From NCBI GenBank assembly GCA_021738625.1, contig JAIPBS010000005.1, positions 51,478 to 115,477 of the forward strand: DNA of 64,000 bases. Reading direction: 5' to 3'. The position numbers were made by a program, and so were the translations under genes. Position 1 is the stretch's first letter. Every line of letters starts with the position of its first letter. Below are positions 17,817 through 47,324 of the stretch, piece after piece. The notes under the pieces are model-generated. The model was not told the origin of the DNA. It searched no databases and worked only from the letters and a program-made list of their open reading frames with translations. Source of the DNA: Bacteroidales bacterium. GTDB taxonomy: Bacteria > Bacteroidota > Bacteroidia > Bacteroidales > JAIOZK01.

Positions 17817-17827
17817 ACGTTTTTTAA

Positions 17828-17835
17828 TAATTTTG
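17828..17835 (+). promoter_or_regulatory. Bacteroidota-type -7 promoter box (TAATTTTG) for tsaD
   Basis: Exact match to TAnnTTTG, 21 nt upstream of the tsaD ATG at 17857. Confidence 0.4.
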
Positions 17836-17856
17836 TTCCCCTGATTAAACGTTAAA

Positions 17857-23098: not shown

Positions 23099-23134
23099 TT
23101 TTGGGCAGGCAATGTTTGATTATTGGAGTAGAAT

Positions 23135-26476: not shown

Positions 26477-26507
26477 CCATCAACCTCCGAAGAGGTATAA
26501 TGGTTAT
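26465..26507 (-). terminator. Candidate terminator for the sigma/anti-sigma operon (overlaps the CHAT stop codon)
   Basis: ataaccat (26473-26480) pairs with atggttat (26500-26507). An inner stem pairs cctc with gagg around a cgaa loop. The plus-strand A-run at 26466-26473 becomes a U-tract on the minus-strand RNA. Confidence 0.4.
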
Positions 26508-26532
26508 TATGAACTCCCAAGACAAATTTTTG

Positions 26533-27848: not shown

Positions 27849-27858
27849 TTGTCATTGA

Positions 27859-29208: not shown

Positions 29209-32200
29209 TATGCAGGAAACAGAGAAACCTCATAAAATAAAAAGAAAAAGTCGCAGGAAGAAATGGTTAAAGCGGGTTTTGATAATACTGGCTGGGTTAA
29301 TGATCACACTTGGTTTGTTGATCTATTTTTTCTTTGATGACCTGATCAAAACTTCACTTTATGATTTCGTGCTGGTTGAAAGTAAGGAAGTATACAAGCT
29401 TAAATTTCAGGAAGTTGATTTTCAGTTCAAAAACAGCACTTTAACGATAAAAGGTGTTCATTTACAACCCGATACGAATCGCTATAAGAGCCTGGTTAAA
29501 GACGGGGGAAAACAAAAACCTCTCTATACGGTACGAATTGAAGAGATACAGCTTCAAAAGTTTAATTTCTTGGAATTATATTACGACGGACGTCTTGAGA
29601 TTGATAAGATCCTCGTAATAGATCCCGTGGTAGACCAGATTGGTATCCATCATGAAGATGTTTCAAAACCGCATAAAAAGTTTATTGAGGTTCTTCAAAA
29701 TGTTTCCAACAAATACCTGGAGGAGACGCAGATCAATGAGATCGTATTGAGGAACGGAAACTTTGGATTTTACAGTGCCATTGGAGACACCCTTACCGAT
29801 GCTGGGATTGATGGCATTTCAATATATCTGAAGGAATTCAGAATAAACGATGCTACAGTTGTTTCTGACAAAAAGATACTTTTCTCTGAGGACATCGAAA
29901 TTAATCTTGAAAAAATTGAAGCCATCCTCATAAACAACTCTCACTGGCTTACAATTGATTCGATCAGCTTTTCTACAATCGACAGTAGTTTGAATACACA
30001 TGGGGTTAAAGTAGAACCGGTTGATTCGTTGAAAAGAGGCCGGGGTGTGGAAGATAAACTGTTGATCAATTTTGATATGCCGTCGATTTCCTTTGCTGAT
30101 GTAAATATAAACAAATTATTTTTTGAGGATTATCTTGCAAGCGATAGCCTTATTTTCAAAAAACCCGTGCTCAAACTTTATGGCCAGCCAAAAAAAGGTT
30201 CGGATAATAGAATAGACCAGCAGTTTAACAAACGGTTCCTACTTGATTTGTTTTCTGATTATCTGGTAGGAATTGATGTAAATCATTTGTTTTTGGAGCA
30301 TGGAAATTATGTTGCATATGACGGCATAACAGACACAGTGCCCAGAACACACGCCGAAAGCATTGATTTTAGTTTGAACGGAATACACATTGATACTGCC
30401 CATCTTGACGACCAACAGGAGCTTATAATCGCTGATGATGCTTCACTTATTGTTGAACGGTTTGTTTCGCGTTTACAGAAGACAAGGCATCGTTTGACGA
30501 TTGAAAAAATTCACTTTGATTCCTATTCTGAATTTATAGCGCTTTCCCAGCTCAGTCTGGTGCCTGATGGGAATGTAAGTGATAGTATAACAGCCGGTTT
30601 GCCATTCCTGAGAATATCTCAGGTGAACTTCAGGAAGTTGCTGAACTCCGGTGAGGTCATTGCCGAAAAAGTCTATGTCAAGAAACCTGATATCACTGCC
30701 AACATGCTTTTAGACGCTTCAAAACAAAATAAAACAGCGGATAACAACAAGCCCTTTAAAATGATTGCTTTCGATTCATTATATCTGGACAGTTGCCGCT
30801 ATACGATAAAACTTAGGGATAGCATGGGGGTAGTTCAGTCGGAATTGCATTGCAGGCTTTTATTACTTGAGTTGTTGAATGATACCATAGACTTTTCTCA
30901 TACCGAACTTTTTGAAATGGGAGCGATCGATCTCATACAGGAAGATTTCCATTTCTCTATACCTTCGATAAATAGAAAAATTGAAGTTGGGCAGATGCAT
31001 ATTTCATCAGTTGATTCAACAGTATATCTCAAAAATGCATCTATGCTGACTGTTGATGACTCCCAGGAGTTGGCAGATGCGAATGGCATCCCCGGACGGA
31101 TAGACATTCCTGAATTGATTTTAAGCCGGATTGATCCTGTTGAATATTTCCGGGACAAAAATCTCCTGGCCCAAAATCTTGTTGTTACAAATCCTTACCT
31201 CGAACTTGCTGTAACAAACAAATTCTCAGGCAATGAACACCTCACGAAAAAATTGCTCAGAAAGAAAATGAGTGAAGTGTTTGCGGTTTTCAGTATAAAT
31301 AAGGTCCAACTTAAGAATTTGAAAATTGGATTATCCGGGAATGATCAACCACCTTTAATTCAACATATAGGAGATCATGGACTTACGATCGGGATTGATG
31401 GCTTTGCATTTAACAAGCATTTGCCTGATCCGGATCGCTTTCTTTTTAGTGAAGATATTACTCTGAATATAAACGATCTTACAGTTCCTTTCCAGGGCAC
31501 ATTCTATAGTATGTCTATCAAGGATCTATATCTTTCCACCATGGGGCGTAATGTCAAGCTTACAGGATTGCGACTGAATACAAGCGAAAATGAGTCACTG
31601 AGCCTGAATTTGCCCCGTTTTGAAATAAACCGGATTGATTTTGAGAAGCTTTTGTTTGGCAGGCAGATTGAAGTAGGTTCTATTGAATTGCTCGCACCCG
31701 ATTTGTTTCTTAAACCCCATTTCAATAAGCAACCCGATGGGGAAATGGATTTCGTGGTTCAAAATCCCGGGATCATAAAAACTACATCAATTGACAGTGT
31801 TTTAATTAACTATGGCGAACTTTATTATGAAAATCAGGACGGAATGATTGACAGCCTGAAAACTGATTTTAAAGTTCTGGTTCGTGATGTCAATTTAGAG
31901 GAGGGAGTATCTTACCGGTTTGGAAAAGATTCTTTGATTACCGATAAAATTGAATTGACAGTTAAAAATCTTTTCTCACGCGGTATGCGTGGTTTTTACA
32001 CCTTTTCATTGGCAGATGGGAACATCCGCATCGACAGCGGAAAAATGGCTCTGCATGGGTTAAAGCTACATCCTGCATATCCGCAACTCCTAACAGATGA
32101 TATGAGGGAGGATACCATGAATCATGTAATTTCGGTTGAAATTCCTCATGCTACGATTGATGGTATTGGATTTGAAGATTTGATAAGGTTAAATGGCTTG

Positions 32201-33544
32201 CATATTGGAGATATCGGCTTTAAGAAAACCAATGTTGGTTTGTTTTCACTGAAAATTCCCGTCGGTGATGAAAACCCGAAAGAGCAGACTAAACTGAGGC
32301 TTCCCAAAAGTTTGCCCGAGCTATCGATTGGAAATGTTGATTTTGGTGATGTAAATTTTAAATGGCATCAGGTGTTCCCAGATTCTGTTACATCATTTAT
32401 ACTGGATGATTTATTGTTGAAAGTGAATCGTTTACAACTAGATAGCGCCAGCATAAACGGGCCGCATAATTTCATGTTTGCAGAAAATATCGAATTGGAA
32501 AGCGACCATTATGGTTTCAATACAAAAAATGGCATGTATGAGATGTATTTTGGTAAACTCAAACTTTCAACAGGAGCAAATAAAGTTACATTGGATTCGT
32601 TTAGTCTGCGTCCGAGATTTGAAAAATATGAATTTGCCCGGCGGGTCGGACATCAGACTGATAGAATGATACTTAGCGTGGAGGATATCAGTATCAACAA
32701 GCTGGATTTTAAAGCGCTGACTCAAAGCAGCAGCATTATATCAGAGCGGATTGATATTGGCAGCTTTCAGTTTGAAGCTTTCCGTGATAAGAGCGTTCCC
32801 TTTCCTGAAGATCAGCTTCGCGGGATGCCCAGACAGATGCTGAAGCAGATTCCCCTGAAAACAATTATCGATACCATTGCTTTGAACAACGGTAAAATTA
32901 CTTACGGTGAGCGTATGCATAAAACCTGGTCGGACGGTGAGGTAATCCTGGACGACTTTAATGGCACCATAACCGGATTGAAAAATGATTGGAGTAAAGA
33001 TGACACTCTTGTAGCAAAAGTGGACTTTAAGCTAATGAAAGAGGGAGACGCCCATATTAAGCTTGGTGTTCCTTTGGCCTCAAAGGCGGACACCTTCTTT
33101 TTGCATGGCGAGCTAAACCGTATGGACTTGTCGGCTTTCAACTCAATGACCAGAAGCCTGTTTGGGGTTGCCATAAAAAAAGGTATGGGAGAAGTTGATG
33201 ACATTCGCATGCATGGAAACGCTGAAAACATGACCGGTGAGTTGATCTTTCCTTTTAGAAAACTAAAAATTCAATTGATCAATCCCCGAACAGGCGAAAG
33301 GGGGGGGATAGGAGATGGGATCATGACTTTTTTGGCCAATGAAATTTTACTGAGGAGCAATAACCCTCGATTTTTGCGCAAAATTCGTGTCGGAACCGTT
33401 TATGCGCCCCGTGACCCCAAACGTTCCATATTCAATTATATATGGAAAGGAATACTTAGTGGAATTGAATCTACACTGGGATACAGCGATAAGGAACAAA
33501 GACAGCAAAGAAGGGAGTTACGAAAAAAGCAACGGAAGGAATGA
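29201..33544 (+). CDS. Very large N-terminally anchored envelope protein, AsmA/DUF748-like (tentative)
   Basis: About 1447 aa. A basic N-terminus (KIKRKSRRKKWLKR) is followed by one TM helix (VLIILAGLMITLGLLIYFFF). The long beta-rich body has no enzymatic motifs that I recognise. The ATG at 29201 overlaps the EEP stop by 8 nt (ATGAGTGA). The family assignment rests on architecture only. Confidence 0.5.
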   Translation: MSDMQETEKPHKIKRKSRRKKWLKRVLIILAGLMITLGLLIYFFFDDLIKTSLYDFVLVESKEVYKLKFQEVDFQFKNSTLTIKGVHLQPDTNRYKSLVKDGGKQKPLYTVRIEEIQLQKFNFLELYYDGRLEIDKILVIDPVVDQIGIHHEDVSKPHKKFIEVLQNVSNKYLEETQINEIVLRNGNFGFYSAIGDTLTDAGIDGISIYLKEFRINDATVVSDKKILFSEDIEINLEKIEAILINNSHWLTIDSISFSTIDSSLNTHGVKVEPVDSLKRGRGVEDKLLINFDMPSISFADVNINKLFFEDYLASDSLIFKKPVLKLYGQPKKGSDNRIDQQFNKRFLLDLFSDYLVGIDVNHLFLEHGNYVAYDGITDTVPRTHAESIDFSLNGIHIDTAHLDDQQELIIADDASLIVERFVSRLQKTRHRLTIEKIHFDSYSEFIALSQLSLVPDGNVSDSITAGLPFLRISQVNFRKLLNSGEVIAEKVYVKKPDITANMLLDASKQNKTADNNKPFKMIAFDSLYLDSCRYTIKLRDSMGVVQSELHCRLLLLELLNDTIDFSHTELFEMGAIDLIQEDFHFSIPSINRKIEVGQMHISSVDSTVYLKNASMLTVDDSQELADANGIPGRIDIPELILSRIDPVEYFRDKNLLAQNLVVTNPYLELAVTNKFSGNEHLTKKLLRKKMSEVFAVFSINKVQLKNLKIGLSGNDQPPLIQHIGDHGLTIGIDGFAFNKHLPDPDRFLFSEDITLNINDLTVPFQGTFYSMSIKDLYLSTMGRNVKLTGLRLNTSENESLSLNLPRFEINRIDFEKLLFGRQIEVGSIELLAPDLFLKPHFNKQPDGEMDFVVQNPGIIKTTSIDSVLINYGELYYENQDGMIDSLKTDFKVLVRDVNLEEGVSYRFGKDSLITDKIELTVKNLFSRGMRGFYTFSLADGNIRIDSGKMALHGLKLHPAYPQLLTDDMREDTMNHVISVEIPHATIDGIGFEDLIRLNGLHIGDIGFKKTNVGLFSLKIPVGDENPKEQTKLRLPKSLPELSIGNVDFGDVNFKWHQVFPDSVTSFILDDLLLKVNRLQLDSASINGPHNFMFAENIELESDHYGFNTKNGMYEMYFGKLKLSTGANKVTLDSFSLRPRFEKYEFARRVGHQTDRMILSVEDISINKLDFKALTQSSSIISERIDIGSFQFEAFRDKSVPFPEDQLRGMPRQMLKQIPLKTIIDTIALNNGKITYGERMHKTWSDGEVILDDFNGTITGLKNDWSKDDTLVAKVDFKLMKEGDAHIKLGVPLASKADTFFLHGELNRMDLSAFNSMTRSLFGVAIKKGMGEVDDIRMHGNAENMTGELIFPFRKLKIQLINPRTGERGGIGDGIMTFLANEILLRSNNPRFLRKIRVGTVYAPRDPKRSIFNYIWKGILSGIESTLGYSDKEQRQQRRELRKKQRKE

Positions 33545-33558
33545 TTATTTTATCCGCC

Positions 33559-34728
33559 TTACTCCCAGACACCTGCAATTTGCTTGCCGCAGTTGCCGCA
33601 AATGCCTTTTTCCATATTTTTGAATGACGTCCTGAATCCCCGCCTCTGTATAACTATTTCACCACAATCCGGACAATAAGTATGCTCGCCAATCCCCGGT
33701 ACATTCCCGATATATACATAATTTAATCCGGAAGAAAGGCCAATTTCCCTGGCCATGTTTAAAGTTTCCACCGGGGTAGCAGGTATGTTTTTTAGTTTAT
33801 ACATTGGATGAAACCTGCTAAAATGCAGGGGCACATCATTGAATCCATTTTCATAGAGCCAGTCACACATTTTCCTGATCATATCCGTGTCATCTGTCCA
33901 GCTGGGAACTACCAGGTTTGTTATTTCAAGCCAAACGCCCTCTTCTTTCAAAATTTTAAGACTCTCAAGCACAGGTTCCAGGGTGCCGGCATTCAGCATT
34001 TCATAGGTTTCATTGCTGAATGATTTCAGGTCAATGTTGGCTGCATCGATGTATTTGCACCAGTTTCTGAGCGGTTCCTCATTGATATAGCCTGCAGAAA
34101 TAATCACATTCTTGATGTTTTTTTCTTTTGCCAGTTTTGAGGTATCCAAGGTGTATTCGTAGAAAGCGATCGGATCGGAATAAGTATAGGCGATGGAGCG
34201 GCAATCGTAAGCCTGGCATTGCTCAATTACATCGGCTGGCATCAGGTCATGGTTTCGCGTATCATAGGGGGATGACTGGGATATTTCCCAGTTCTGGCAA
34301 TTGAGGCAGGCCAGGTTGCAACCGGCAGTGGCAATGCTGAACGCGCGAGAGGAGGGAAGAAAATGATAAAGCGGTTTTTTTTCGATCGGATCAACATGCA
34401 CTGCACACGGATTTCCATAAGTAATGCTGAAGAGTTTTCCATCCTCACGCAGATTTGTTTTGCAATCGCCGGTTTCTCCTTCTTTTAGCACACAAGCCTG
34501 CGGACAAAGGCGGCATTTGATCCCTCTGGGGGTGTTTACATAGTAAATGGCCTCCTTGCTCCATTTCCATAATTTACCCGGATTTAAAGGTGGTGCTGTT
34601 GCTTTACCGTTAAATGAATTTGCGATGGACGCCATTCCACTCAAACAAAAAGCGAGTCCGCAACTTCCCACGATCCCCTGTTTGATAAACTCCCGTTTGT
34701 TGATTCTTTTGTTGTCTTTCTTGCTCAT
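33559..34728 (-). CDS. amrS: AmmeMemoRadiSam system radical SAM enzyme with an N-terminal Tat-like signal
   Basis: 389 aa. The radical SAM cluster motif is CNLACLNCQNW (CxxxCxxC). An upstream Cys cluster reads CRLCPQACVLKEGETGDC. The C-terminal zinc-ribbon-like segment is CPDCG...CGNCG. The N-terminus NKREFIKQGIVGSCGLAFCLSGMASIANS resembles a twin-arginine signal, with KR in place of RR. Confidence 0.85.
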   Translation of the reverse strand: MSKKDNKRINKREFIKQGIVGSCGLAFCLSGMASIANSFNGKATAPPLNPGKLWKWSKEAIYYVNTPRGIKCRLCPQACVLKEGETGDCKTNLREDGKLFSITYGNPCAVHVDPIEKKPLYHFLPSSRAFSIATAGCNLACLNCQNWEISQSSPYDTRNHDLMPADVIEQCQAYDCRSIAYTYSDPIAFYEYTLDTSKLAKEKNIKNVIISAGYINEEPLRNWCKYIDAANIDLKSFSNETYEMLNAGTLEPVLESLKILKEEGVWLEITNLVVPSWTDDTDMIRKMCDWLYENGFNDVPLHFSRFHPMYKLKNIPATPVETLNMAREIGLSSGLNYVYIGNVPGIGEHTYCPDCGEIVIQRRGFRTSFKNMEKGICGNCGKQIAGVWE

Positions 34729-34764
34729 CTTGTTTTCTGATCCAGTAAATGCAAAATTAGTTAT

Positions 34765-36903
34765 TTAAGTTATTAATTTTTTGTGCTTCAGATAGATTAA
34801 AAGTGCCACCAAAAAATTGAAACCAGCCAGAACATAAGTCGAAGCTGTAATGCCCAGCAAAGGAACCAAGATAATGGAGGTGAGGATCGCGCCTGCTGCC
34901 GAACCGAACATGTCTGCGCTGTATGTTACTGCAGCTAACGGCTTAATACCGGATTGCTGAATTCTGGTTGAATAAGCAAATTGAAGACCCACCAACATTC
35001 CACCGGTAAATGTGAACAGCAGGAACAAAGCGTGCATGATCAATTCCATCGACACGAGCTCTCTTAACAATAACAAAACCAATGGTGTGGAAATTGCATA
35101 AACGCCGATTAAAAGCTGTATCCCGGAGTATGTTTTAAGATTAAATACCCAAACAGATTTGATCAGCCGCAGGGCGCCGAATGCCAGCCCGCCCATGAAT
35201 ACGGGTATGATGAATCCCAGGAAAAGATAGACATAGCCGTAAATGATCTGATAAGAGAAAAGCAAAATAAACTCGATGGAGGCGGCGGTGAAACCTCCAG
35301 TGTAAAGGGCTGTATTCACCAGCTTGTTTCCCGCAACCGGAACAATGATCAACAATGCAAGCAAACCGATCAATATCCACCGGTTGTATTCGAAATGCTT
35401 CAACCACTGGTTGATCTCGGCAAAATATAAAACCGGCCTGAAATCTTTGTTTGGTTTTGTTTGCTCAGGCAGTTGTTCCCTGATTATTTCACTCTGATGT
35501 TTAAGCAAAGATGAATCAAGGTAAAAGCTGTTGACATAGTCCGTTTGGATGTTGTGTTTTTCAATATTGTTAAGAAAACCATAATCCAACCGGCCGTCTG
35601 AGGCGAGATAATAATTCCGGTTACCGGCGATCAACTGAACATGCTTAAAAACCTTTTTAAGGCTATGATGTAGAATGGCATTGGTCAGGGCGGATTCTTC
35701 ACTCATATAATTGGCCGTTGATGAAAGTGAAATTGAAATCAGCCCGGAACTTGTGAGATGCTGTTTCAGTCTTTTGAAAAAGTCGATGGTGAAATACCTG
35801 TTAAACTGAGCGGTGGAGGGATCGGGTGTGTTGATCAATGCCACATCAAATTTCTTTTCGGTTTCATTGAGGAATATCCGCGCATCTTTATGCAAAACCT
35901 TTACTTCACTGGTTTTAAATAAAGAATCCGTTTCCGGTATGAAATGTTTTGCAAGCTTGACCAGGTATTTATTTGGTTCGAGCAGAACGATTTCCTCCAC
36001 ATCAGGATATTTAACGATCTCATTCGCCGACCCGAACAAACCTCCCGAAATCATCAGGATCTGTTTTGCATATGGCCGCTGAAGCATAGCAAAATGTACC
36101 CTCTCTTCCAGCCTGGTGATACTTCTTGAAGAATACACCGCCTGTCCGCTTTCATAAAAATTCACCTGCCCGTTGGATTCTGTTACAGCCAGCTCCCCAA
36201 ATGGAGTTTGCTCAACAGATAATATTTCCTGGCCGCGGAAAAGTTCTTCTCTCAGGCAATACTTGGGGCAAATGAATATAAGATATAAAGGTAGGATCAG
36301 GCATATCAGGATGAACAAGATGCGAACGGCAGTGTATTGACCTGTTTGCAGATTGTAAAAAACAAACAAAATATTGATCAACATAACAACCGACAGCACA
36401 ACGTCAGATGAAAAAAAATTGATCATCAGCAGGTTGAATATTACGCCCCCGCCTATGCTGCCGATTCCTTCCCATGCATATACTTCACCTACAGTGTCTT
36501 GTTTCTTGCTACTGTTGTATAGTGCGGATAGAAGAGGGAATGAAATTCCACCGAGCAAACAAAATGGAGCAAGCATAACCAGACTGAGCAAAATGATCTC
36601 ATATAATCCAACCGCTACCCCATACGTAAAAATATCATGAAAGAAAATATTCAGGCTGGTTACACTTCCCAATGCAATCAGGCTGAGCAGGAGGGGGTTA
36701 TAGTAAAGTGCATAATTTCGAAGTCCGGAAGGCAAAAATTTCGTAAGCAGCGCACCTGCCGCGGTCAGCAACATCCAGCTTGCAAGGATGATTCCCATAA
36801 CCAGTTCGTTTCCGCCGGCAACAATCATAAATTCGCGCATCATGATGATTTGCGTGATGATGGAGGTAAATCCCAGTAGGACTGCTGCTATTCTTATCTT
36901 CAT
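34765..36903 (-). CDS. Polytopic membrane protein with an embedded spermidine-synthase-like (aminopropyl/methyltransferase fold) domain
   Basis: 712 aa with multiple TM helices at both ends. The central soluble domain has spermidine-synthase-like motifs (ILMISGGLFGSANEIVKYPDVEEIVLLE, DVALINTPDPSTAQFNRYFT). Confidence 0.75.
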   Translation of the reverse strand: MKIRIAAVLLGFTSIITQIIMMREFMIVAGGNELVMGIILASWMLLTAAGALLTKFLPSGLRNYALYYNPLLLSLIALGSVTSLNIFFHDIFTYGVAVGLYEIILLSLVMLAPFCLLGGISFPLLSALYNSSKKQDTVGEVYAWEGIGSIGGGVIFNLLMINFFSSDVVLSVVMLINILFVFYNLQTGQYTAVRILFILICLILPLYLIFICPKYCLREELFRGQEILSVEQTPFGELAVTESNGQVNFYESGQAVYSSRSITRLEERVHFAMLQRPYAKQILMISGGLFGSANEIVKYPDVEEIVLLEPNKYLVKLAKHFIPETDSLFKTSEVKVLHKDARIFLNETEKKFDVALINTPDPSTAQFNRYFTIDFFKRLKQHLTSSGLISISLSSTANYMSEESALTNAILHHSLKKVFKHVQLIAGNRNYYLASDGRLDYGFLNNIEKHNIQTDYVNSFYLDSSLLKHQSEIIREQLPEQTKPNKDFRPVLYFAEINQWLKHFEYNRWILIGLLALLIIVPVAGNKLVNTALYTGGFTAASIEFILLFSYQIIYGYVYLFLGFIIPVFMGGLAFGALRLIKSVWVFNLKTYSGIQLLIGVYAISTPLVLLLLRELVSMELIMHALFLLFTFTGGMLVGLQFAYSTRIQQSGIKPLAAVTYSADMFGSAAGAILTSIILVPLLGITASTYVLAGFNFLVALLIYLKHKKLIT

Positions 36904-36955
36904 CTATATCCGAAAAAAATTTGTATTTTTATTTTTAACCTTAACTGTTAAGTTA

Positions 36956-36963
36956 TAATTTTG
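36956..36963 (+). promoter_or_regulatory. Bacteroidota-type -7 box (TAATTTTG) upstream of the amrB-amrA fusion gene
   Basis: Exact TAnnTTTG match, 36 nt upstream of the ATG at 37000. Confidence 0.35.
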
Positions 36964-36999
36964 AGTTAATAAAGCTGCTGAGACTAAATTAACCAAAAA

Positions 37000-38505
37000 A
37001 TGAGAAGCTTAAAAAACATACTCTTGCTTATGATGATCCTAAATCTGTTCAATCTGGGCGCTTCTTCACAAGAAGAACATACAAAAGACCGACAACCCTA
37101 TGCCGCCGGAAGGTTTTTTAATTCAAATCCTCATGAACTAATGGAAGAACTGAAACATTTGTTCGGTTTGGCAATTCCTCGAAAATATGAAAACCCTGTT
37201 GCCCTGATAACCCCGCACGCTGGATACGTATACTCCGGAGAAGTAGCCGCATGCAGTTTCAACCAGCTCGATCCGGATGCAGAATATGAAAATATTTTTC
37301 TCATCGCTTCAAGTCACAGAGTGACTTTGGGCGGTGCTTCGATCTATCACCAGGGGAATTATCATACACCCCTGGGAGAAGTGGAAGTGAACCGTGAACT
37401 CGCCAAAAAACTGATCGATGAGCATGATGTTTTTACCTTTCGTGAAGATGCCCATACTTATGAGCATAGCCTTGAGGTGCAAGTGCCCTTTCTCCAGTTT
37501 CATATGAACAAAAAATTCAGAATTGTTCCAATTATCATGGGCACCCAAAGCATAAGCGATTGTAAAAAGGTAGCCGAAGCATTGAAACCTTATTTTAATG
37601 ACAACAATTTGTTCGTGATCAGCACGGATTTTTCACATTATCCGTCTTATCAACAGGCTGCTGAAGTTGACCGCAACACCGCGGATGCCATCCTGAAGAA
37701 TAATGTGAATGCCTTACAAAATGTCCTGGCTAAAAACGAGCAAAAAGGATACAAGGATCTCGCAACAAGTCTTTGCGGGTGGAGTTCTGTTTATACCCTG
37801 TTGTATTTAACAGCGGATGATCCTGATTTTGAATATCATAAACTGAAATACATGAATTCGGGTGATCAGCCTTTTGGTGATAGATCCTCTGTGGTGGGAT
37901 ACTATGCTATAGCGGTAACGAAAAAAAAAAGTAGTTCTGCAGAAAACCCCCAATTCTCCTTAAGCCGCAAAGACCGTGATATTTTACTTGGAATCGCACG
38001 GCATACGATAAACTCCTATATAAAGGAAGGTATCAAACCTGAACTTGATCCCAGTGGCTATTCTGAAAGACTATTATCAGAATGCGGGGCCTTTGTCACC
38101 TTGCGCAAAGATGGGGCCTTAAGAGGCTGCATTGGACGTTTTACAAGCAATGAACCCCTGTATCGCGTAGTAAGTGATTTGGCCATTGCCAGTGCCACGC
38201 AAGATCACCGGTTTCCGCCTGTTACAGCGCGGGAGATCGATGATCTGGAAATTGAGATATCGGTGCTGACACCCCTCAGAAAGATCAATTCCTTTGATGA
38301 GATCGAATTGGGCAGGCATGGAATATATATCAGCAAGGGTTATCGCTCAGGAACTTTTTTACCGCAAGTGGCGACCGAAACAGGCTGGACTTTGGAAGAG
38401 TTTCTTGGGCATTGCGCAAGAGATAAAGCGGATATAGGGTGGAATGGCTGGAAATCAGCTGACATATATATTTATGAAGCTCTGGTATTCGGTGAAAAAG
38501 AATAG
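37000..38505 (+). CDS. amrB-amrA: Fused AmmeMemoRadiSam system protein B (MEMO1-like) and protein A (AMMECR1-like) with an N-terminal Sec signal peptide
   Basis: 501 aa. The signal peptide is MRSLKNILLLMMILNLFNLGASSQ. The MEMO-type motif is ALITPHAGYVYSGEVAA...STDFSHY. The AMMECR1-type motif is GAFVTLRKDGALRGCIGRF...GTFLPQV. Confidence 0.85.
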   Translation: MRSLKNILLLMMILNLFNLGASSQEEHTKDRQPYAAGRFFNSNPHELMEELKHLFGLAIPRKYENPVALITPHAGYVYSGEVAACSFNQLDPDAEYENIFLIASSHRVTLGGASIYHQGNYHTPLGEVEVNRELAKKLIDEHDVFTFREDAHTYEHSLEVQVPFLQFHMNKKFRIVPIIMGTQSISDCKKVAEALKPYFNDNNLFVISTDFSHYPSYQQAAEVDRNTADAILKNNVNALQNVLAKNEQKGYKDLATSLCGWSSVYTLLYLTADDPDFEYHKLKYMNSGDQPFGDRSSVVGYYAIAVTKKKSSSAENPQFSLSRKDRDILLGIARHTINSYIKEGIKPELDPSGYSERLLSECGAFVTLRKDGALRGCIGRFTSNEPLYRVVSDLAIASATQDHRFPPVTAREIDDLEIEISVLTPLRKINSFDEIELGRHGIYISKGYRSGTFLPQVATETGWTLEEFLGHCARDKADIGWNGWKSADIYIYEALVFGEKE

Positions 38506-39348: not shown

Positions 39349-39942
39349 TTAGTGTATCCGGGGATCTCGATATTTATTTTTCCTGTTGATTTCATTTAAT
39401 AATTCAGCAATGCTTTCCAGTTTAAGTACATAATGTGGCCGGAAGAGGTCTATTGCCGAGCGCGGCATTGTATCCACCTCGGCGGTCGTGGGATCCTGCA
39501 CGATGGTTAAACCGCCGTGTTCTTTTATTGTTTTCAATCCTTTGGCCCCGTCATTGTTGGCTCCCGTTAGGATTATACCGATTAATCGATTGCCGTATGC
39601 AAATGCAGCAGTTTCGAACATGATATCAATGGAGGGGCGGGCATAGTTCACCTTATCTTCTACCGATAACGAAATGCTGTAATCCTCTTCGACAAGCATA
39701 TGAAAGTTGGGGGGAGCGAAATAGGCTTTACCTTTCTCGATTTTTTCTTTTTCATCCGCTTCTTTCACCGTCATTTTACACAGAGAATTGAGGTGTACTG
39801 TCATGTAATTGTCGGAATGTGCGCTGATATGTTGGGTTACAAGCAGGGGTATGCTGAATTCTGCATCCAGCCCTGTTAAGATGGTCTTGAGGGCGTTCAA
39901 CCCACCTGCAGATGCTCCTATGACTATAGCGCTGTATTCCAT
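39349..39942 (-). CDS. cheB: CheB-type protein-glutamate methylesterase, catalytic domain only (no receiver domain)
   Basis: 197 aa. The motifs are VIGASAGG, TQHISAH and LTGANNDGAKG, representing the Ser, His and Asp regions of CheB. Confidence 0.8.
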   Translation of the reverse strand: MEYSAIVIGASAGGLNALKTILTGLDAEFSIPLLVTQHISAHSDNYMTVHLNSLCKMTVKEADEKEKIEKGKAYFAPPNFHMLVEEDYSISLSVEDKVNYARPSIDIMFETAAFAYGNRLIGIILTGANNDGAKGLKTIKEHGGLTIVQDPTTAEVDTMPRSAIDLFRPHYVLKLESIAELLNEINRKNKYRDPRIH

Positions 39943-39946
39943 TTTT

Positions 39947-40825
39947 TCATCTCAGATAAAAGTTTTTTTTGTAAATTTTTTCCTTGTCATCTATCTCCTG
40001 AAAATGTTTGTAGGCGCTGGAAAACCGAAGCGATTCTTTTGATCCGAGGCAAAGATATCCACCTGGCATCAGGCTTTGCTCAAACAAGCTCAATACACGT
40101 TCCTGAAGCTCCTTATTGAAATAAATAAGAACATTGCGGCAGATCACCAGGTTGACTTCAGCGAAAACGTTGTCTGTCACCAGATTGTGTTCTGCAAATA
40201 CAATGTTTTTCTTCAGTGATGAATCCAGGATGACGGATTCATATTTGGCGGTATAATAATCAGAAAAAGCATTTTTGCCACCCGCCCGCTGATAATTGCG
40301 TGTGTACTCCTTGATCTTATCGATGGGGTAAATTCCTTCTCTCGCTTTTTTTAAGGCCAGTTGGTTAAAATCGGTGGCGTAGATTTGGGTTCTCTCGAAC
40401 AGCTTTTCTTCCTTAAGAATGATGGCCATTGAATATACCTCCTGTCCGGTTGAACAGCCTGCATGCCAGATCTTCAGGTAAGGATAAGTTTTTAAGAGGG
40501 GAATGATCTCCTCACGTAGTCTCTTATAAAAGGTGGGATCTCTGAACATTTCGGTAACTGTTATGGAAAGGTCCTCAAGGATTAGTTTGATGAAACTGTC
40601 ATTATAAATTACCTCGTGTATCAGTTCTGAAATGTTTTTTAGATTGGAACCGGACAAACGGTGTAAAACTCTTCTTTTGATATGTGCCTGCCCGTAATTT
40701 CTGAAATCATATCCATATTTTTGGTAAATAGCTTCAAGCAATAATTTGATTTCCAGGTTGATGTTTTTGTTCACCACATCTGTATCGGGCTCTCGGTTTT
40801 GTTTTTCTGCTTTGGGTTTGTTCAT
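39947..40825 (-). CDS. cheR: CheR-type protein-glutamate O-methyltransferase
   Basis: 292 aa. It has TEMFRDP and an IWHAGCSTGQEVYSMAI SAM-binding motif, plus CRNVLIYF. Confidence 0.85.
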   Translation of the reverse strand: MNKPKAEKQNREPDTDVVNKNINLEIKLLLEAIYQKYGYDFRNYGQAHIKRRVLHRLSGSNLKNISELIHEVIYNDSFIKLILEDLSITVTEMFRDPTFYKRLREEIIPLLKTYPYLKIWHAGCSTGQEVYSMAIILKEEKLFERTQIYATDFNQLALKKAREGIYPIDKIKEYTRNYQRAGGKNAFSDYYTAKYESVILDSSLKKNIVFAEHNLVTDNVFAEVNLVICRNVLIYFNKELQERVLSLFEQSLMPGGYLCLGSKESLRFSSAYKHFQEIDDKEKIYKKNFYLR

Positions 40826-40854
40826 TTTCTTTCCCGGATCGTACCTGCTTCTGT

Positions 40855-43800
40855 TTAGTTATTGTACAGCCAAACCCGCAATAGGCTGATCAATTTGTCT
40901 GTATTCACGGGCTTGGCCAGATAGTCGTTTGCGCCTGCTGCGATGCATTTGGCCCGGTCTTCTTTCATGGCTTTGGCGGTAAGTGCTATGATTGGAAGCT
41001 TTTCAAACTTTTTCTGCTTGCGTATTTCCATCATGGCTTCATAACCATCCATTTCAGGCATCATAATATCCATGAGTACAAGATTGGTGTCGGGGTTGTT
41101 ATTGAGTTTTTCAACACCCTCCCGTCCGTTTTTTCCAATGATCACCTTCATGCCGTTTTCTTCAAGAACACTTGCAAGAGCGAATACATTTCGCATATCA
41201 TCATCCACGATAAGGACTTTTTTGCCCTTAAGGGTATCGGGTTTCCCCTGCAGTTTTTCAAGCATGCTTTGTTTGTCTTTCGGCATGTCTTTATGAACCT
41301 GATGCAAAAAGAGGGTGGCTTCGGACAACAATCTTTCAAAGGACCGGGCGCCCTTCAGGATGATGGAGTCGGCATATTTTTGAAGCTTTTCATTTTCTTC
41401 AGGAGAAAGATCCTGTCCGGTATAAATGATCACAGGCAGGTCATTTATTTTTTTGTCTCTCCTGATTTGTTCCAACAGATCAAAACCGCTGAGTTCTTTT
41501 AGTCCCAAATCGAGTATCAGGCACTCGAACCTTTGCTTTTTAAGCAGTTCAATTGCCTTTTCTCCTGAGTCAACCGATTTGATCTCAACATTTCCTTCAT
41601 CCAGCAATTTAACAATGCTTTTTCTCATAATGGGATCATCTTCAACTACAAGAGCTTTTTTAATGGGGCGGGAAATTACGTTTTCAAGCTTTTTAAATAC
41701 CTCTTCCAATTTGCCGTGATCAACGGGTTTGGTAAGGTATCCAATGGCGCCCATTTTCATGGCATCCAGGGATTTATCGGCTGCGGAGATAATGTGTACG
41801 GGAATATGCCGTGTTCTGGAATTCTCCTTTAGCCTTTTCATAACCTCATACCCATCGATTCCAGGTAATCCTATGTCGAGAATAATTGCCTCGGGTAGAT
41901 AATAATCGGCATAATGCAGGCCGGTTTCACCATCCAGCGCAATAAGCGCTTTGAAATTCTTTTCGTGCGATAACTCATACAGGACTTGACAGAAATTCAC
42001 ATCATCCTCAATGATCAGGATGTAATGATCTCCCTGGTTTATGTCGTCCTTGTCATCAATGATCTCATGGTACTTATCCTGTTTACCTTTTATTTTTTCC
42101 CGGGTTTTTTTACTGGCTACAGCTTTTGCTTCTTCGTTTTTATCAGGTTTGTATTGTTCAGCAGGTTCACCTGTTTTGTTGAAGTTTTCGGGCAAAATAA
42201 GGGTAAATGCAGAACCCATGTTTTCTTTACTTCTGGCGATCAGAGCTCCCTGCAAAAGTTCGGTGAATTTGCGTGAGATGGTTAATCCGAGCCCTGTTCC
42301 GCCAAATTTCCTGCTTGTTGTTCCATCGGCTTGTTTAAAGGCCTCGAAAATATACTCCAGCTTATCCTCAGGTATACCAATGCCTGTATCGATAACAGAA
42401 AAGGCGACCGAATCCTCTTTTTTAAGGTTGAAAATACCGCTCAACATATCATTATCCGGTCGACCGACACTCAATTTCACTTCTCCTTCTTTTGTGAATT
42501 TGACGGCATTGGATATCAGGTTTTTAAGTATTTGCATCAGCCGTTGTGAATCCGTTCGTAATACCTTGGGGACGTCTTTTTTCTGTTCAAAATTCAACTC
42601 AAGCCCTTTTTCATTGGTCAGAGGTTTGAAGGTGCCCATTACAAATGATTTGACCTCACTGAGGTAAGTGTCCTCAATCTCAAGTTCTAATTTGCCGCTT
42701 TCAACCTTGGAAAGATCCAGAATTTCATTGATAAGTTCAAGCAAGTCGGATCCGGATGTGTTGATCGTTTTGGCAAATTGTATCTCCTTTTGGTCGAGAT
42801 GATCTTTCCTGTTTTCGGAAAGCAGTTGCGACAGAACAAGTATGCTGTTAAGCGGCGTACGCAGTTCATGCGACATATTGGCCAGAAATTCGGATTTATA
42901 TTTGCTGGCCTGTTCCAGGTCCCTGGCCTTTATCTCAATTTCCTCCCTGGCCTTTTTCAGCTCTTCATTTTTCTTTCGGATGTTGTCGCGTTCCAGTTCC
43001 AGGTCGTTGGTTCTTTCTTCAAGCTCCTCATTGGTTACACGCAGTTCTTCCTGTTGTGATTTCAGATTTTCTTCCGAGAGCTTGAGCGCCTTGGTTTGTT
43101 CTTCGAGTTCCTCATTGGCCTGCCGCAGTTCTTCCTGCTGCACCTGCAATTCATTTGCCTGTTTCTGTGTTTGTTTCAGCAAGCGCTGAACACGAGTGTG
43201 GACCTGTATGGTGTTGATTGCAACGGCAATGTTGTCAAGGCAACTGCTAAAAAAGTCGAGCTGCAATTCGCTGAATTCTTTCAAACTCCCAATCTGAATA
43301 ACACCCTTGGTCTCATTTTCGAAGATCACTGGGGCTGTGATCAGGTGTAAGGGTTTTCTTTCATCAATGCCGATGTTGAGCTTAGGTGTTATCTCTGCGG
43401 GTAGGTTAAAAGCCATTTGTTTCTGATCCTTGGCTACCTGACCGATAATTCCCTGACCCACTTCAAATTCGGTGAATTTATTTTGTATATCCTTGTATGC
43501 GTATGTAGCCTCAAGTTTTAACTTCCCATCCTCATATATATATAGCAATCCGATCTGTGCTTCCAGGTAATGAATCAGGAAGTTTATGATCTCATCGGTG
43601 AGTTTCCTGATGTTTTTTAAGCCGCTGAGTATGCTTTCCAGCTGGTTCATTCCACTTTTAAACCAATCCTGCTGCTGCACTTCAGTGGATGTTTCCCGCA
43701 GGGTTTTCGTCATTTTATAAAGTGCGATCCCCAGGGTGTCTTTGTCGCTGCGGGGGGTTATGTTGGTTGAATAATCCCCTTTGGCGATGCGGTTGGCCTG

Positions 43801-45213
43801 ATCGACAACATTTCTGAAACTCTCAACCATCTGGTTCATGGATTTCCCCAAAACATCTTCTTTACTTCTTATCATAACGGTTTTGGAATAATCACCATAG
43901 GCGGCCGATTCACTTACCTTTGCGTAGGATTGAAGTGATTCTACCAAATTGTTGAAGGTGTCCACCATTTCGCCCACCTCGTTTTTGGGGGCTTTCACTT
44001 TTTTACTGACCAGTTCTCCCGATCCCACCTGCTTGGCCCATGCTGAAAGTTTTTTGATGGGGGTGACGATTTTTTTGGTTACCAGCACCGAAATAAAAAA
44101 AACGATAATGGCAGTCAGGATAAAAGATATTTTGGCAATATCAGATAGCTGTTGTGCATAGCCGTATGCTTCAGTTTGATGTATTTCTTCAAGCAGGGCC
44201 CATTCAACGCCAAATTTTTCAAGATAATCCAGATGCCGATAAATACCAAGCACATATTTACCTTTGAAGTTAGGGTAGATAGAGATTAGCTCACGGTTTT
44301 GTTCCTGATCTCTCAGGTATTGTTCATCGTCCTTGTTCCGGATGTACTTTTGCCATTCCAGTGTTTTCGAGGTTCGCGCTTCCTGTTGCAGGATGGTCGT
44401 TTCATCATCAAAACGGGTGGCCGAGCGCAATCTCAGATCGGGTCCAACAAGATAAGCCTCTCCGGTCTCACCCAGTCCCACATCATCCTGTATGATGTTG
44501 TTGATGCGCTCCATGGTGATCTGTATGGCCAGTATGCCGATCATCTGATTTTGATCATCAAGTATCGGATGTCCGAAAAAGCCTGCAATCCGGTTGTTGG
44601 AGGGGGCATAATGAGCAAGATCGGAAAACAGAGGTTTTCTCGCTTCGATTATTTTCCTGCCGGTTTCGGCAAAGGGCGTATCTGAATATTTTCCCCGGAA
44701 AAGGTTTGTGCCCAGATCGTTTTGTTTCTTTAACGAGAAAAGTATATCACCGCGATTGCTGATGAAATAAATGTTATAATATCCCAGTTTTCGGGTCATT
44801 GCTTGCAGATCGTTGCGGCGGGTTTTGGCAATGCGCTCCCACTCATTGCTTGATGTAAACTCCTGCAGGTTCATGTCAGACTTTCTGTAGGCCTCTTCAA
44901 GCTGTTCCAAAAATCTGGTGTTGGATTGCAGGTTTGCCTGTATATCAAGATAATTAGCAATCTCTTTGAAGTAGGTGTTCAGGTACTCTACCCGAAGTTG
45001 GGAGGTGGTTATCAACGATTTTTCGGCCACGACATTTAATCCGGCATATGCAAAATAATAGTTAATAATACTCATCAGCAAAAGCGGGATCACCGAAATG
45101 CCGAGAAACCAGATCAGAAGAGATTTACCTACGCCAATGTATAATTTGGCTTTTAACCATTCTCTAAACCTGTCGAAACTAGTTTGTTTGTTGTTATTAC
45201 GATGTTCATTCAT
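40855..45213 (-). CDS. Giant hybrid sensor histidine kinase: Cache-like periplasmic domain, HAMP linkers, GAF-like domain, long coiled coil, HisKA/HATPase and three receiver domains
   Basis: 1452 aa. Two TM helices flank an extracytoplasmic domain of about 300 aa. The HAMP-like segment is TPIKKLSAWAKQVGSGEL...EVGEMVDTFNNLVESL. The H-box is MSHELRTPLN (His codon 42868-42870), and GGTGLGLTISRKF marks the HATPase. Three REC domains follow (ILIIEDD..., ALVVEDDP..., VLIVDDDMRN...MDIMMPEMDG). Confidence 0.9.
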   Translation of the reverse strand: MNEHRNNNKQTSFDRFREWLKAKLYIGVGKSLLIWFLGISVIPLLLMSIINYYFAYAGLNVVAEKSLITTSQLRVEYLNTYFKEIANYLDIQANLQSNTRFLEQLEEAYRKSDMNLQEFTSSNEWERIAKTRRNDLQAMTRKLGYYNIYFISNRGDILFSLKKQNDLGTNLFRGKYSDTPFAETGRKIIEARKPLFSDLAHYAPSNNRIAGFFGHPILDDQNQMIGILAIQITMERINNIIQDDVGLGETGEAYLVGPDLRLRSATRFDDETTILQQEARTSKTLEWQKYIRNKDDEQYLRDQEQNRELISIYPNFKGKYVLGIYRHLDYLEKFGVEWALLEEIHQTEAYGYAQQLSDIAKISFILTAIIVFFISVLVTKKIVTPIKKLSAWAKQVGSGELVSKKVKAPKNEVGEMVDTFNNLVESLQSYAKVSESAAYGDYSKTVMIRSKEDVLGKSMNQMVESFRNVVDQANRIAKGDYSTNITPRSDKDTLGIALYKMTKTLRETSTEVQQQDWFKSGMNQLESILSGLKNIRKLTDEIINFLIHYLEAQIGLLYIYEDGKLKLEATYAYKDIQNKFTEFEVGQGIIGQVAKDQKQMAFNLPAEITPKLNIGIDERKPLHLITAPVIFENETKGVIQIGSLKEFSELQLDFFSSCLDNIAVAINTIQVHTRVQRLLKQTQKQANELQVQQEELRQANEELEEQTKALKLSEENLKSQQEELRVTNEELEERTNDLELERDNIRKKNEELKKAREEIEIKARDLEQASKYKSEFLANMSHELRTPLNSILVLSQLLSENRKDHLDQKEIQFAKTINTSGSDLLELINEILDLSKVESGKLELEIEDTYLSEVKSFVMGTFKPLTNEKGLELNFEQKKDVPKVLRTDSQRLMQILKNLISNAVKFTKEGEVKLSVGRPDNDMLSGIFNLKKEDSVAFSVIDTGIGIPEDKLEYIFEAFKQADGTTSRKFGGTGLGLTISRKFTELLQGALIARSKENMGSAFTLILPENFNKTGEPAEQYKPDKNEEAKAVASKKTREKIKGKQDKYHEIIDDKDDINQGDHYILIIEDDVNFCQVLYELSHEKNFKALIALDGETGLHYADYYLPEAIILDIGLPGIDGYEVMKRLKENSRTRHIPVHIISAADKSLDAMKMGAIGYLTKPVDHGKLEEVFKKLENVISRPIKKALVVEDDPIMRKSIVKLLDEGNVEIKSVDSGEKAIELLKKQRFECLILDLGLKELSGFDLLEQIRRDKKINDLPVIIYTGQDLSPEENEKLQKYADSIILKGARSFERLLSEATLFLHQVHKDMPKDKQSMLEKLQGKPDTLKGKKVLIVDDDMRNVFALASVLEENGMKVIIGKNGREGVEKLNNNPDTNLVLMDIMMPEMDGYEAMMEIRKQKKFEKLPIIALTAKAMKEDRAKCIAAGANDYLAKPVNTDKLISLLRVWLYNN
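43009..43140 (-). repeat. Intragenic duplicated 48-nt unit encoding QQEELR(QA/VT)NEELEE(Q/R)T within the kinase coiled coil
   Basis: Unit 1 is at 43093-43140 and unit 2 at 43009-43056. By hand count they are 38/48 nt and 13/16 aa identical, separated by 36 nt. Confidence 0.6.
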
Positions 45214-45269
45214 CTTCGAGAACCTGATTCGTTATCGAAATTGTTACTAAAATGTTTGTTTAGGTAAGT

Positions 45270-47324
45270 TTATTTATCCTTTTGGGTAAACTTGTCTATT
45301 GCTTTATAAAGTTCATTGGGATCAACCGGTTTGGAAACATAATGATCCATTCCGACCGCCAGGCATTTTTCCTTATCGCCTTTCATGGCATGTGCAGTCA
45401 TGGCGATAATAGGTGTTTTGTGTTCTTTATCTTTTTCATGTTTCCGGATTAGCCGGGTTGCGTCAAAACCATCCATTTCAGGCATCTGAACATCCATCAA
45501 AATAACATCAAAATTCTGATCGCGCGCTTTGTCGGATGCTTCTTTACCGTTTTCGGCCAGGCTAACTTTATAGCCCTTTTTTTCAAGCAGCTGATTTACA
45601 ATTTTCCGGTTGATCATTTGATCCTCAGCAATCAGCACATGAATTTTCTTTTTGTTTGTTTCAGGTTTTTCGTCTGAGCGATCGGATTTTTTGGCGGCTT
45701 CCGTTACTTTTTGATTGAGCTTGCGCATCAACAATGACTGCAATTCGCGCTGATGAACCGGTTTGGCCAGGGTGTTTTTTAAATCAAGGTCGGAGGCTTT
45801 TTTCTTCGCATAGGCATATTGAGGCGTGGTCAGGTAAACAATTTCGGGAAGAAATTTCTTTTCGGTGTTTTCTTTTATTTCTTTGCTAACATCCGTTCCT
45901 TTCATTTTGGGCATATAAAAATCAACCAATAAAAAGTCATATTTCAGTTCTTTATCCGATAATTGTTTGATTTTTTTCAGAGCGTCATCACAATTTGATG
46001 AGATATCGGTGTGAATGTTCCAGTAATCCAAATACTTTTTAATGATAGACGCACTTTCCAGATTATCGTCAACAACCAAAATACGGATGTCTTCTTTGGG
46101 TTCATCCAGGTCGAGCTTCAACAGGTCTTTGTTTTGCTTTCCAGGTTTAAAATCAATCATAAAGTAAAACCTGCTTCCTTTGCCCTGTTCGCTTTCTGCA
46201 CCGATTTCACCACCCATCATATCGACGAGTTTCTTGGAGATGTTCAATCCCAGGCCGGTTCCGCCATGTGTTCTGGTGGTTGTTTTATCAATTTGCTGGT
46301 AGGACTGAAATAATTGTCCGATCTTGTCTTTTGCAATACCGATTCCCGTATCAACAACAGAAAATTCAAGTTTTAGGTAATCTTTGCTCTGGTCAAGTTC
46401 TTTGATATAGACGCCGACTTTCCCCTCATCAGTGAACTTGATGGCATTTCCAACCAGATTGATCAGTACCTGTCTTAATCTTATTGGGTCGCCAACCAGG
46501 GAGTCTGGCAAATCCGGTGGAATTTCACAAATGAATTCAAGTTTCTCCTGGAAGATCTTGACGGAGAGCAATCTTGTAACTTTCTCCATTACATCCCTGA
46601 TGCTGAATTCGACCGATTCGAGTTCCAGCTTATCAGCTTCTATTTTAGAAATGTCAAGTATTTCATTGATAATGTCCAGCAATGATTCGCCTGATTGTTT
46701 GATATCCAGTATTCTTTCCCGTTGAATGTCGTTTAGCTCTTCATCCATCAGAGCCAGGTCGGCCATGCCGATGATACCGTTCAGCGGGGTGCGTATCTCA
46801 TGGCTCATATTTGCCAGGAAAGAGCTCTTGGCCGTGGTGGCTTCTTCGGCAATTTTTTTGGCGTCGTGTAGTTCATTTACTGTGTTTTCCAGTTTTCTGG
46901 TGGTTTGTATAAGGGTGTGTTTTTGCTTGAAAAACTCAATATAAGCCTGAATTTTGCTTTGCAGGATCTCCAGATCGAGTGGTTTATAAAGGTAATCAAC
47001 CGCACCTGCCTTATACCCCCTGAAAACATGTTCGCGCTGTTTGCTGATGGCCGTGACGAATATGATGGGGATGTGTTTGTACTTTTCATTTTGCCGCATA
47101 AGCTCTGCTGTTTCAAAGCCGTCCATATCCGGCATTTGCACATCCATCAGGATCATGCTTATTTCATGTTCCAGTAAAAGGCCCAGGGCTTCGTTGCCTG
47201 ATTGTGCCTTTATTATGTTCAACTCAGGGCTTTCGAGTATCCCTTCAAGGGTAATCAAATTTTCTTCCCTGTCGTCAACAATCAGAATATTGAATTTCGA
47301 GGAGTCTTGTTCTGTCATGTTCAT
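45270..47324 (-). CDS. Hybrid histidine kinase/response regulator (REC-HisKA-HATPase-REC-REC)
   Basis: 684 aa. The N-terminal REC is [11 protein letters not shown]...[12 protein letters not shown]. The H-box is [11 protein letters not shown] and the HATPase has [11 protein letters not shown]. Two C-terminal REC domains follow (ILVVDDN...[10 protein letters not shown] and [10 protein letters not shown]...[12 protein letters not shown]). Confidence 0.9.

Follow-up and report, generated by a model that had tools for sequence, protein, structure and literature searches.

The subject of this study is a gene cluster in a 64-kb window, the whole stretch of 64,000 nucleotides analysed on contig JAIPBS010000005.1 of a Bacteroidales bacterium, in which a CheR-type methyltransferase and a CheB-type enzyme are encoded beside two hybrid histidine kinases (HKs), named HK1 and HK2 here. 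The preliminary description of this DNA had reported four co-directional genes on the minus strand, their domain architectures, and a hydrolase gene behind them, and both the open reading frame (ORF) coordinates and the Pfam results agreed with it (Table 1). The Pfam scan took in every non-overlapping ORF of 90 aa or more in the window, 35 in total. Following the run from HK2 through HK1, CheR, and CheB to the hydrolase, the gaps are 56, 29 (from the HK1 stop to cheR), 4 (between cheR and cheB, which are separate genes), and 30 nt. Promoter-like sites (30, versus 28.2 in shuffled sequences, in a scan not modelled on Bacteroidota promoters) and terminator-like sites (17 versus 14.0) were both at chance level, so the operon claim was based on spacing and synteny only. 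MCPsignal, CheW, and CheA domains had no match among the 35 ORFs, consistent with the reported absence of methyl-accepting chemotaxis proteins (MCPs), CheA, and CheW from the 64 kb, and the sole further kinase of the window is a small HisKA-HATPase protein (20455-21399). The gene set and the architectures are thus directly observed.

Table 1. Genes and sites of the kinase-CheR-CheB cluster, in window coordinates.
Feature	Position	Strand	Basis and remarks
HK2, soluble hybrid kinase REC-HisKA-HATPase_c-REC-REC, 684 aa	45270..47324	-	ORF and Pfam; heads the co-directional run
HK1, membrane sensor hybrid kinase, 1452 aa	40855..45213	-	ORF and Pfam; proposed methyl-accepting substrate
HK1 candidate methylation region, aa 686-745	42979..43158	-	Two signalling-helix units; 120-sequence alignment
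HK1 His782 codon, predicted phospho-accepting His, H-box SHELRTPLN	42868..42870	-	Translation, alignment, HisKA 773-840
CheR-type protein-glutamate O-methyltransferase, 292 aa	39947..40825	-	Pfam CheR_N and CheR (E 1.7e-43)
CheB catalytic domain only, 197 aa, predicted methylesterase/deamidase	39349..39942	-	Pfam CheB_methylest 1-174 of 174 (E 1.9e-59)
Alpha/beta hydrolase, 268 aa	38512..39318	-	Pfam Abhydrolase_1; 30 nt downstream of cheB, co-directional

HK1 had Pfam matches to dCache_1 (64-340), HAMP (378-428), GAF_2 (534-666), HisKA (773-840), HATPase_c (888-1009), and three Response_reg domains. Past the single Pfam HAMP match, aa 430-530 hold two conserved HAMP-like repeats (A-x-G-D-Y-S ... 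R-S-x-D-x-L-G), indicating that HK1 has a poly-HAMP array. The order along the protein is a transmembrane segment, dCache_1, a second transmembrane segment, HAMP with two HAMP-like repeats, GAF, a tandem signalling helix (S-helix), HisKA, HATPase_c, and three receiver (REC) domains. Up to seven HAMP-like segments were seen in some HK1 relatives (locus L077 of the survey described below). The linker before the H-box of HK2 is short and, on inspection of the sequence, free of repeated Glu-Glu heptads. Most related loci pair the large kinase with a REC-HK(-REC) gene, and HK2 is likely a phosphorelay partner or modulator of HK1. Pfam found no PAS domain in the proteins of the cluster.

Between the GAF and HisKA domains of HK1, where a coiled coil had been described, the translation carries Leu or Ile every seven residues, starting with 689, 696, and 703 and continuing up to 766, and the other core position is a polar Q, N, or T. 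Within this linker, aa 692-735 make up the tandem S-helix, with the unit QQEELRQANEELEEQT at 692-707 and the unit QQEELRVTNEELEERT at 720-735. The second unit terminates in ERT, a signature of signalling helices. Glu-Glu pairs stand at 694/695, 701/702, 714/715, 722/723, and 729/730, plus 704/705 and 732/733. HK1 was aligned with 119 full-length homologues (53-93% identity; 120 sequences in total). Glu was found in 119 sequences at position 694, in 120 at 695, in 117 at 701, in 120 at 702, and in all 120 at each of 722, 723, 729, and 730, so these four pairs were as well conserved as the columns of the H-box SHELRTPLN, which were invariant. At the pair 714/715, Glu was kept in 119/120 and 115/120 sequences, respectively. 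Position 704 was Q in 76 sequences and E in 39, and interchange of Q and E is typical of chemoreceptor sites that are deamidated by CheB. As judged from the sequence, HK1 has conserved S-helix acidic pairs that are candidate acceptors of methyl groups.

The preliminary description had proposed a gene-neighbourhood check of whether the association of CheR/CheB with the kinases is kept in related genomes. A profile of 20 CheR sequences was searched against one genome per species (185,579 species), 80 loci were kept, and their ORFs were annotated with hidden Markov models made from the domains of the window itself. CheR identity in these loci was 51-72%, and the taxa represented include Bacteroidota, Clostridium, Paenibacillus, Leptospira, Alcanivorax, Desulfobacterota, Gemmatimonadota, Acidobacteriota, Spirochaetota, and Calditrichota. 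Related clusters occur in cultured hosts such as Flavobacterium xanthum, Sunxiuqinia indica, Clostridium puniceum, Paenibacillus, and Alcanivorax. A kinase with the motif described below, built on a GAF-coiled coil-HK (GAF-CC-HK) core, usually with a sensor and HAMP before it and REC after it, lay next to CheR in 68 of the 80 loci, and CheB was encoded in 76. The linkage was thus conserved across phyla and not lost in relatives. Of the 12 loci that lack the motif kinase, seven lie on contigs that end inside or beside it, and four of these keep its REC tail. In the other five (L015, L030, L036, L049, and L055), the sequence covered reaches from about 10 kb before CheR to 5-10 kb after it. The neighbour in L015 is a REC-PASxn-GAF-PAS_10-HisKA-HATPase kinase and that in L036 a REC-HK protein, and no kinase gene adjoins CheB in L049 and L055.

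Three gene orders were found, HK2-HK1-CheR-CheB, HK1-HK2-CheR-CheB, and CheR-CheB-HK1-HK2, with the gene set kept. The order of the window (PDDEXK nuclease, REC-HK-REC, large kinase, CheR, CheB, hydrolase) is shared by a relative whose kinase is 58% identical, on a contig of 3.97 Mb. As the gene order recurs in this relative and in dozens of further genomes, chance juxtaposition is not the cause. In other phyla, cheB is followed by genes for REC-GGDEF, REC-PAS-GGDEF-EAL, REC-GGDEF-HD, REC-PAS-PilZ, or REC-HK proteins. Cross-phylum mean identity was 0.61 for REC, 0.56 for the kinase core, 0.55 for the coiled coil, 0.55 for CheR, 0.47 for CheB, and 0.33 for GAF.

Across phyla, the last S-helix unit of the 68 kinases reads QQEEL-xxx-NEELEE(R/K/Q)T. 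The positions that were not fixed by the search pattern were also well kept, namely Q1 in 66/68, Q2 in 60/68, E10 in 62/68, and E13 in 61/68. The distance from this unit to the phospho-accepting His is 62 residues in 50 loci and 55 residues in 16, a difference of one heptad. Between one and five S-helix units occur per kinase (two in 53 of the 68), and neighbouring units in the listed sequences are 28 or 21 residues apart. With each such spacing a multiple of seven, the faces that carry the Glu pairs hold a fixed orientation relative to the helix of the dimerization and histidine phosphotransfer (DHp) domain. The conservation of the pairs and their heptad register, like the linkage across phyla, are direct observations. 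A motif profile of 75 columns was then searched against 1.84 billion representative proteins, giving 1654 proteins or clusters at E <=0.001 and 534 at E <=1e-10. The best 150 of the 1654 matches were all GAF-CC-HK(-REC) kinases or fragments thereof.

The two enzymes were compared with families of known function. Against the NCBIfam CheR equivalog (cut-off 435), CheR reached only 86 bits; its closest solved structure is 5ftw (119 bits), and 92 columns were invariant in 20 CheR sequences. CheB scored 163 bits against the NCBIfam chemotaxis CheB (cut-off 293) and aligned over its full length with the solved catalytic domains 3sft and 1chd. Its Ser11 (GASAGG), His38 (QH), and Asp131 (NDG) lie at the catalytic-triad motifs and were invariant in 66 family members. 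With scores far under the cut-offs and the CheB triad residues intact, both look like active members of a separate kinase-linked subfamily, and by its sequence the CheR of the window belongs to a distinct, non-chemotaxis subfamily. The 51-72% identity of CheR across phyla, the invariant CheR columns, and the invariant CheB triad indicate strong purifying selection on both enzymes. Pfam found CheB_methylest only in the CheB of the window, in line with the claim that its receiver is absent, and a REC domain was present in none of 79 CheB ORFs. Since CheB has no receiver, CheA-driven feedback is impossible.

In five loci from Alcanivorax, Alloalcanivorax, and Moraxellaceae (L045, L047, L048, L058, and L067), a stand-alone receiver gene of ~160-185 aa stands between cheR and cheB, which looks like a split version of a receiver-controlled CheB. 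A REC-containing gene follows cheB in the same five loci; it is REC-PAS-PilZ in L045, the sole one scanned with Pfam.

These enzyme features bear on the explanation that CheR and CheB serve a conventional MCP/CheA/CheW array encoded elsewhere and merely adjoin the kinases. Both proteins are clearly members of the CheR and CheB superfamilies, our analysis covers 64 kb of the genome and chemoreceptors may lie elsewhere, and the Clostridium, Paenibacillus, Leptospira, and Alcanivorax hosts are motile with chemotaxis. However, the adjacency to the motif kinase is kept across many phyla and three gene orders, so CheR and CheB are not expected to be unrelated neighbours. The window encodes no MCP, CheA, or CheW, the NCBIfam scores are far from those of chemotaxis enzymes, and CheB is without the receiver that couples it to CheA. 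Bacteroidales are generally non-flagellated and without che genes. In addition, the equivalent pair of Pseudomonas putida, CfcB/CfcC, plays no role in chemotaxis according to a passage of PMC4951495 that cites Garcia-Fontana 2013. We therefore regard service to a hidden array as quite improbable. An MCP model based on the Tsr signalling domain had no match in the 80 loci; it had no positive control and was not relied on.

A closer parallel is the RsbK/RsbM system of Bacillus cereus. RsbK is a hybrid kinase with CHASE3, HAMP, GAF, S-helix, HK, CA, and REC domains, and RsbM, a CheR-type enzyme encoded in the same operon, methylates the RsbK S-helix, a modification needed to keep the kinase off (PMC4574943). 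The same paper cites 127 RsbK-like kinases in 10 phyla. Further work on RsbK-RsbM-RsbY by Chen et al. 2012 is cited in PMC4574943 and PMC12848376, and a passage in PMC12848376 credits de Been and colleagues with noting the genomic association of RsbK with CheR. The mechanism class is thus already published, and the idea of CheR/CheB acting on a kinase is not new.

HK1 has the RsbK-type architecture, consisting of a sensor, HAMP, GAF, an S-helix with the EERT signature, HisKA, HATPase, and at least one REC, and as in B. cereus this extracytoplasmic-sensor hybrid kinase is encoded beside a CheR-type methyltransferase. The Bacillaceae relatives Neobacillus sp. PS3-34 (L085) and Oceanobacillus bengalensis (L086) carry a kinase with the QQEEL...NEEL motif beside a lone CheR, with no CheB. 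They were recovered by searching with a profile of two Paenibacillus GAF-CC-HK segments, and B. cereus RsbK was not among the 120 matches listed for this profile, which were mostly partial metagenomic proteins. A REC-PAS-GGDEF-EAL-GerE regulator lies upstream in L085 and L086. The L085 kinase was called as two genes, 4HB_MCP-HAMP of 274 aa followed by GAF-HK-REC of 725 aa, which may be a frameshift or a genuine split. Unlike RsbK/RsbM, the window has dCache instead of CHASE3, three REC domains instead of one, and a dedicated receiver-less CheB, and a second hybrid kinase stands where B. cereus has the PP2C response regulator RsbY. Pfam found no SpoIIE/PP2C, STAS, or anti-sigma genes in the 64 kb, hence no sigma-B partner-switching genes, indicating that the output branch differs from RsbY/sigma-B, as it does in most other members.

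The preliminary description had inferred that the adjacent kinase with HAMP and coiled coil is probably the substrate of CheR and CheB. This was supported by the linkage in 68/80 loci, the near-invariant heptad Glu-Glu pairs, and the helix methylation of RsbK by RsbM (PMC4574943). Whether the substrate could be some other part of the phosphorelay was also considered, for instance HK2, acidic pairs in any of the six receiver domains, or a further protein. Glu/Asp pairs of a response regulator can be targets of CheR; methylation of Salmonella PhoP by this enzyme has been reported (PMC8546571). Across phyla, conservation peaks in the last REC of the kinase (mean identity 0.61), and the REC domain of B. 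cereus RsbK cooperates functionally with the methylated helix (PMC4574943). Nevertheless, the S-helix is reportedly the methylated element in the sole studied member of this architecture (PMC4574943). Methylation of a receiver would leave unexplained why the helix Glu pairs are near-invariant and keep a heptad register to the phospho-accepting His, and HK2 has no comparable repeat. The (N/K)EE(L/I/F) heptads that follow the CheR domain in a CheB-CheR-PAS fusion, described next, also connect this type of sequence with the enzymes in another architecture. A substrate other than the HK1 helix is thus unlikely, though we give it somewhat more room than the hidden array.

That fusion was observed in Flavobacterium xanthum (L012:7995-11117, +), where it adjoins a CheR-CheB-kinase cluster. 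After its CheR domain are five acidic-pair heptads, ANEEIVS SNEEFQT LNEELET SKEEIEA TNEELIF, which may serve the fused enzymes as a methyl-accepting helix of their own. Like the enzymes of the window, CheB-CheR-PAS(-kinase) fusions occur outside chemotaxis clusters, and the F. xanthum example has a heptad run like the kinase motif. They differ in that the enzymes are fused together and to PAS, whereas those of the window are separate and without PAS. The expectation that such fusions would be among the top motif matches was refuted, as none was found in the best 150 of 1654, and the link between the fusion heptads and the kinase motif is suggestive only.

The cluster was also compared with cfcABCDE of P. 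putida KT2440. In that cluster cfcA encodes a multisensor CHASE3/GAF hybrid kinase, cfcB and cfcC the CheR/CheB pair, and cfcD a REC protein, and CfcA activates the orphan diguanylate cyclase CfcR (PMC4951495, PMC6849547). The window shares with it the GAF hybrid kinase, the CheR/CheB pair, and a second REC-containing kinase or regulator, and gammaproteobacterial and other loci of our survey share the layout together with REC-GGDEF, REC-PAS-GGDEF-EAL, and REC-PAS-PilZ neighbours. Unlike cfcABCDE, the window has no cyclic di-GMP enzyme or PilZ gene (no GGDEF, EAL, HD-GYP, or PilZ domain in its ORFs by Pfam), and its sensor is dCache rather than CHASE3. The target of the window kinase may be an unlinked REC-GGDEF(-EAL) protein. 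No paper testing the methylation of CfcA was found in the literature searched.

The chemoreceptor system itself, with E. coli Tar/Tsr as the example, shares with the window the two enzyme superfamilies, a coiled coil after HAMP on which Glu/Gln pairs are spaced by seven residues, and Q/E interchange at one site, position 704 of HK1. The window differs in having no MCP hairpin, CheA, or CheW, in its receiver-less CheB, and in the residues flanking the sites, and its putative methyl-accepting helix feeds the DHp domain in the same polypeptide. In the F3 chemosensory class of Campylobacterota, a receiver-less CheB works within a CheV/CheA/CheW pathway acting on chemoreceptors (PMC9239204). The CheB of the window is similarly a catalytic domain only, but it has no linked CheV/CheA/CheW pathway in the window.

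Several results weigh against methylation of the HK1 helix. Five full-flank loci have this CheR/CheB subtype and no motif kinase within 10 kb. The flanks of the candidate sites (e.g., R-Q-A-N-E-E-L-E-E-Q) misfit the small-residue consensus of chemoreceptor methylation sites, so the assignment of sites by analogy is weak. Many kinases share an ERT-containing S-helix as a generic feature, and part of the helix conservation may reflect signalling mechanics, not enzyme recognition. Across phyla, the mean identity of the 75-column coiled coil (0.55) is close to that of the kinase core (0.56); the view that the coiled coil is the more conserved was accordingly rejected, and the motif positions alone stand out. 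Kinship with RsbK and CfcA is drawn from published architecture, gene neighbourhood, and close taxonomic relatives, not from alignment. Finally, the CfcA-dependent phenotype of P. putida persisted when the other cfc genes were mutated, according to an unpublished remark of the authors in PMC4951495.

The P. putida mutants, together with the fact that ERT S-helices are common in kinases without CheR, would also suit the explanation that CheR and CheB are inactive remnants or only structural, and that the helix is conserved purely for signal transmission. This disagrees with the invariant Ser11, His38, and Asp131 of CheB, with the identity of CheR across phyla and its 92 invariant columns, and with the finding that RsbM is catalytically required in B. 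cereus (PMC4574943). We consider inactive enzymes highly improbable, more so than either of the other two alternatives.

Taken together, the cluster is probably a Bacteroidales member of a module of the RsbK/RsbM and Cfc type, a phosphorelay whose sensor kinase is a methyl-accepting protein. Methylation of the S-helix by a CheR-type enzyme, with repression of the kinase, is taken from the B. cereus literature and carried over by analogy, and the exact methylation sites, the direction of the effect, the adaptation kinetics, and the output are what we infer for the window. In the proposed mechanism, the dCache domain of HK1 would sense an extracytoplasmic ligand, and the signal would pass through the HAMP array and GAF to the tandem S-helix, which would run directly into the DHp helix with His782. 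By analogy with RsbM, CheR would use S-adenosylmethionine to methylate the conserved Glu-Glu pairs on the exposed face of the helix. Demethylation would fall to the receiver-less CheB, which may also deamidate position 704 in proteins that have Gln there. Neutralisation of charge would shift the packing of the helix and set the kinase/phosphatase balance of HK1, and it may also alter the contact of HK1 with its own REC domains, as in RsbK. Phosphoryl groups would then pass among the three REC domains of HK1 and HK2 (REC-HK-REC-REC).

A further step can be put forward only tentatively, and it is doubtful. In the CheB-containing majority of the family, to which the window cluster belongs, CheR and the receiver-less CheB might give the phosphorelay a reversible multi-site adaptation, a memory in the style of chemotaxis that needs no MCP, CheA, or CheW. 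The feedback would then arise through the conformation of the substrate helix or in the REC domains of the kinase, not from phosphorylation of CheB, and the dynamic range would depend on how many S-helix units (1 to 5) a kinase has. Methylation in B. cereus is a standing (static) repression of the kinase with no paired esterase, and control is not exerted through demethylation, as the authors argue (PMC4574943). The literature searched yielded no study of the esterase-containing version and no demonstration of such adaptation.

The surroundings of the cluster were also inspected. The alpha/beta hydrolase was rejected as a system component, as it follows CheB in only a few Bacteroidales relatives (L001, L003, and L082-L084); a hydrolase beside CheB was not detected in the other loci of the 80-locus set with a single-sequence model. 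It is probably outside the system. Beyond it lie a Memo-AMMECR1 fusion gene (37000-38505, +), a gene for a 712-aa spermidine-synthase-like protein (34765-36903, -), and a radical SAM gene (33562-34764, -), with the second standing between the other two. The neighbourhood of the radical SAM and Memo-AMMECR1 genes (33562-38505) resembles the AmmeMemoRadiSam trio, and the same genes flank the cluster in L082-L084. At 23132-27851, the gene for a 1114-aa TPR-CHAT protein (+) adjoins two minus-strand genes, one for a TPR protein and one for a protein with sigma-70 region 2, and the TPR-CHAT and TPR neighbours were found again in L001. Two giant proteins of ~1450-1530 aa are encoded at 13371-17960 (-) and 29186-33541 (+); one matches TamB and DUF748, whereas the sole match of the other, to DUF748, is weak and falls short of the Pfam cut-off.

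If HK1 is a methyl-accepting kinase as proposed, covalent methylation of sensor kinases would not be a Bacillus oddity but a strongly conserved module of many phyla, including the non-flagellated Bacteroidales. This would correct the functional reading of the 'chemotaxis' annotations of CheR and CheB, which are otherwise puzzling in Bacteroidales. The tandem QQEEL-xxx-NEELEE(R/K/Q)T at a fixed heptad distance from the phospho-accepting His provides a signature that predicts methyl-accepting sites. The role of the paired receiver-less CheB can be addressed in the cultured hosts, and the motif makes the question of adaptation testable.

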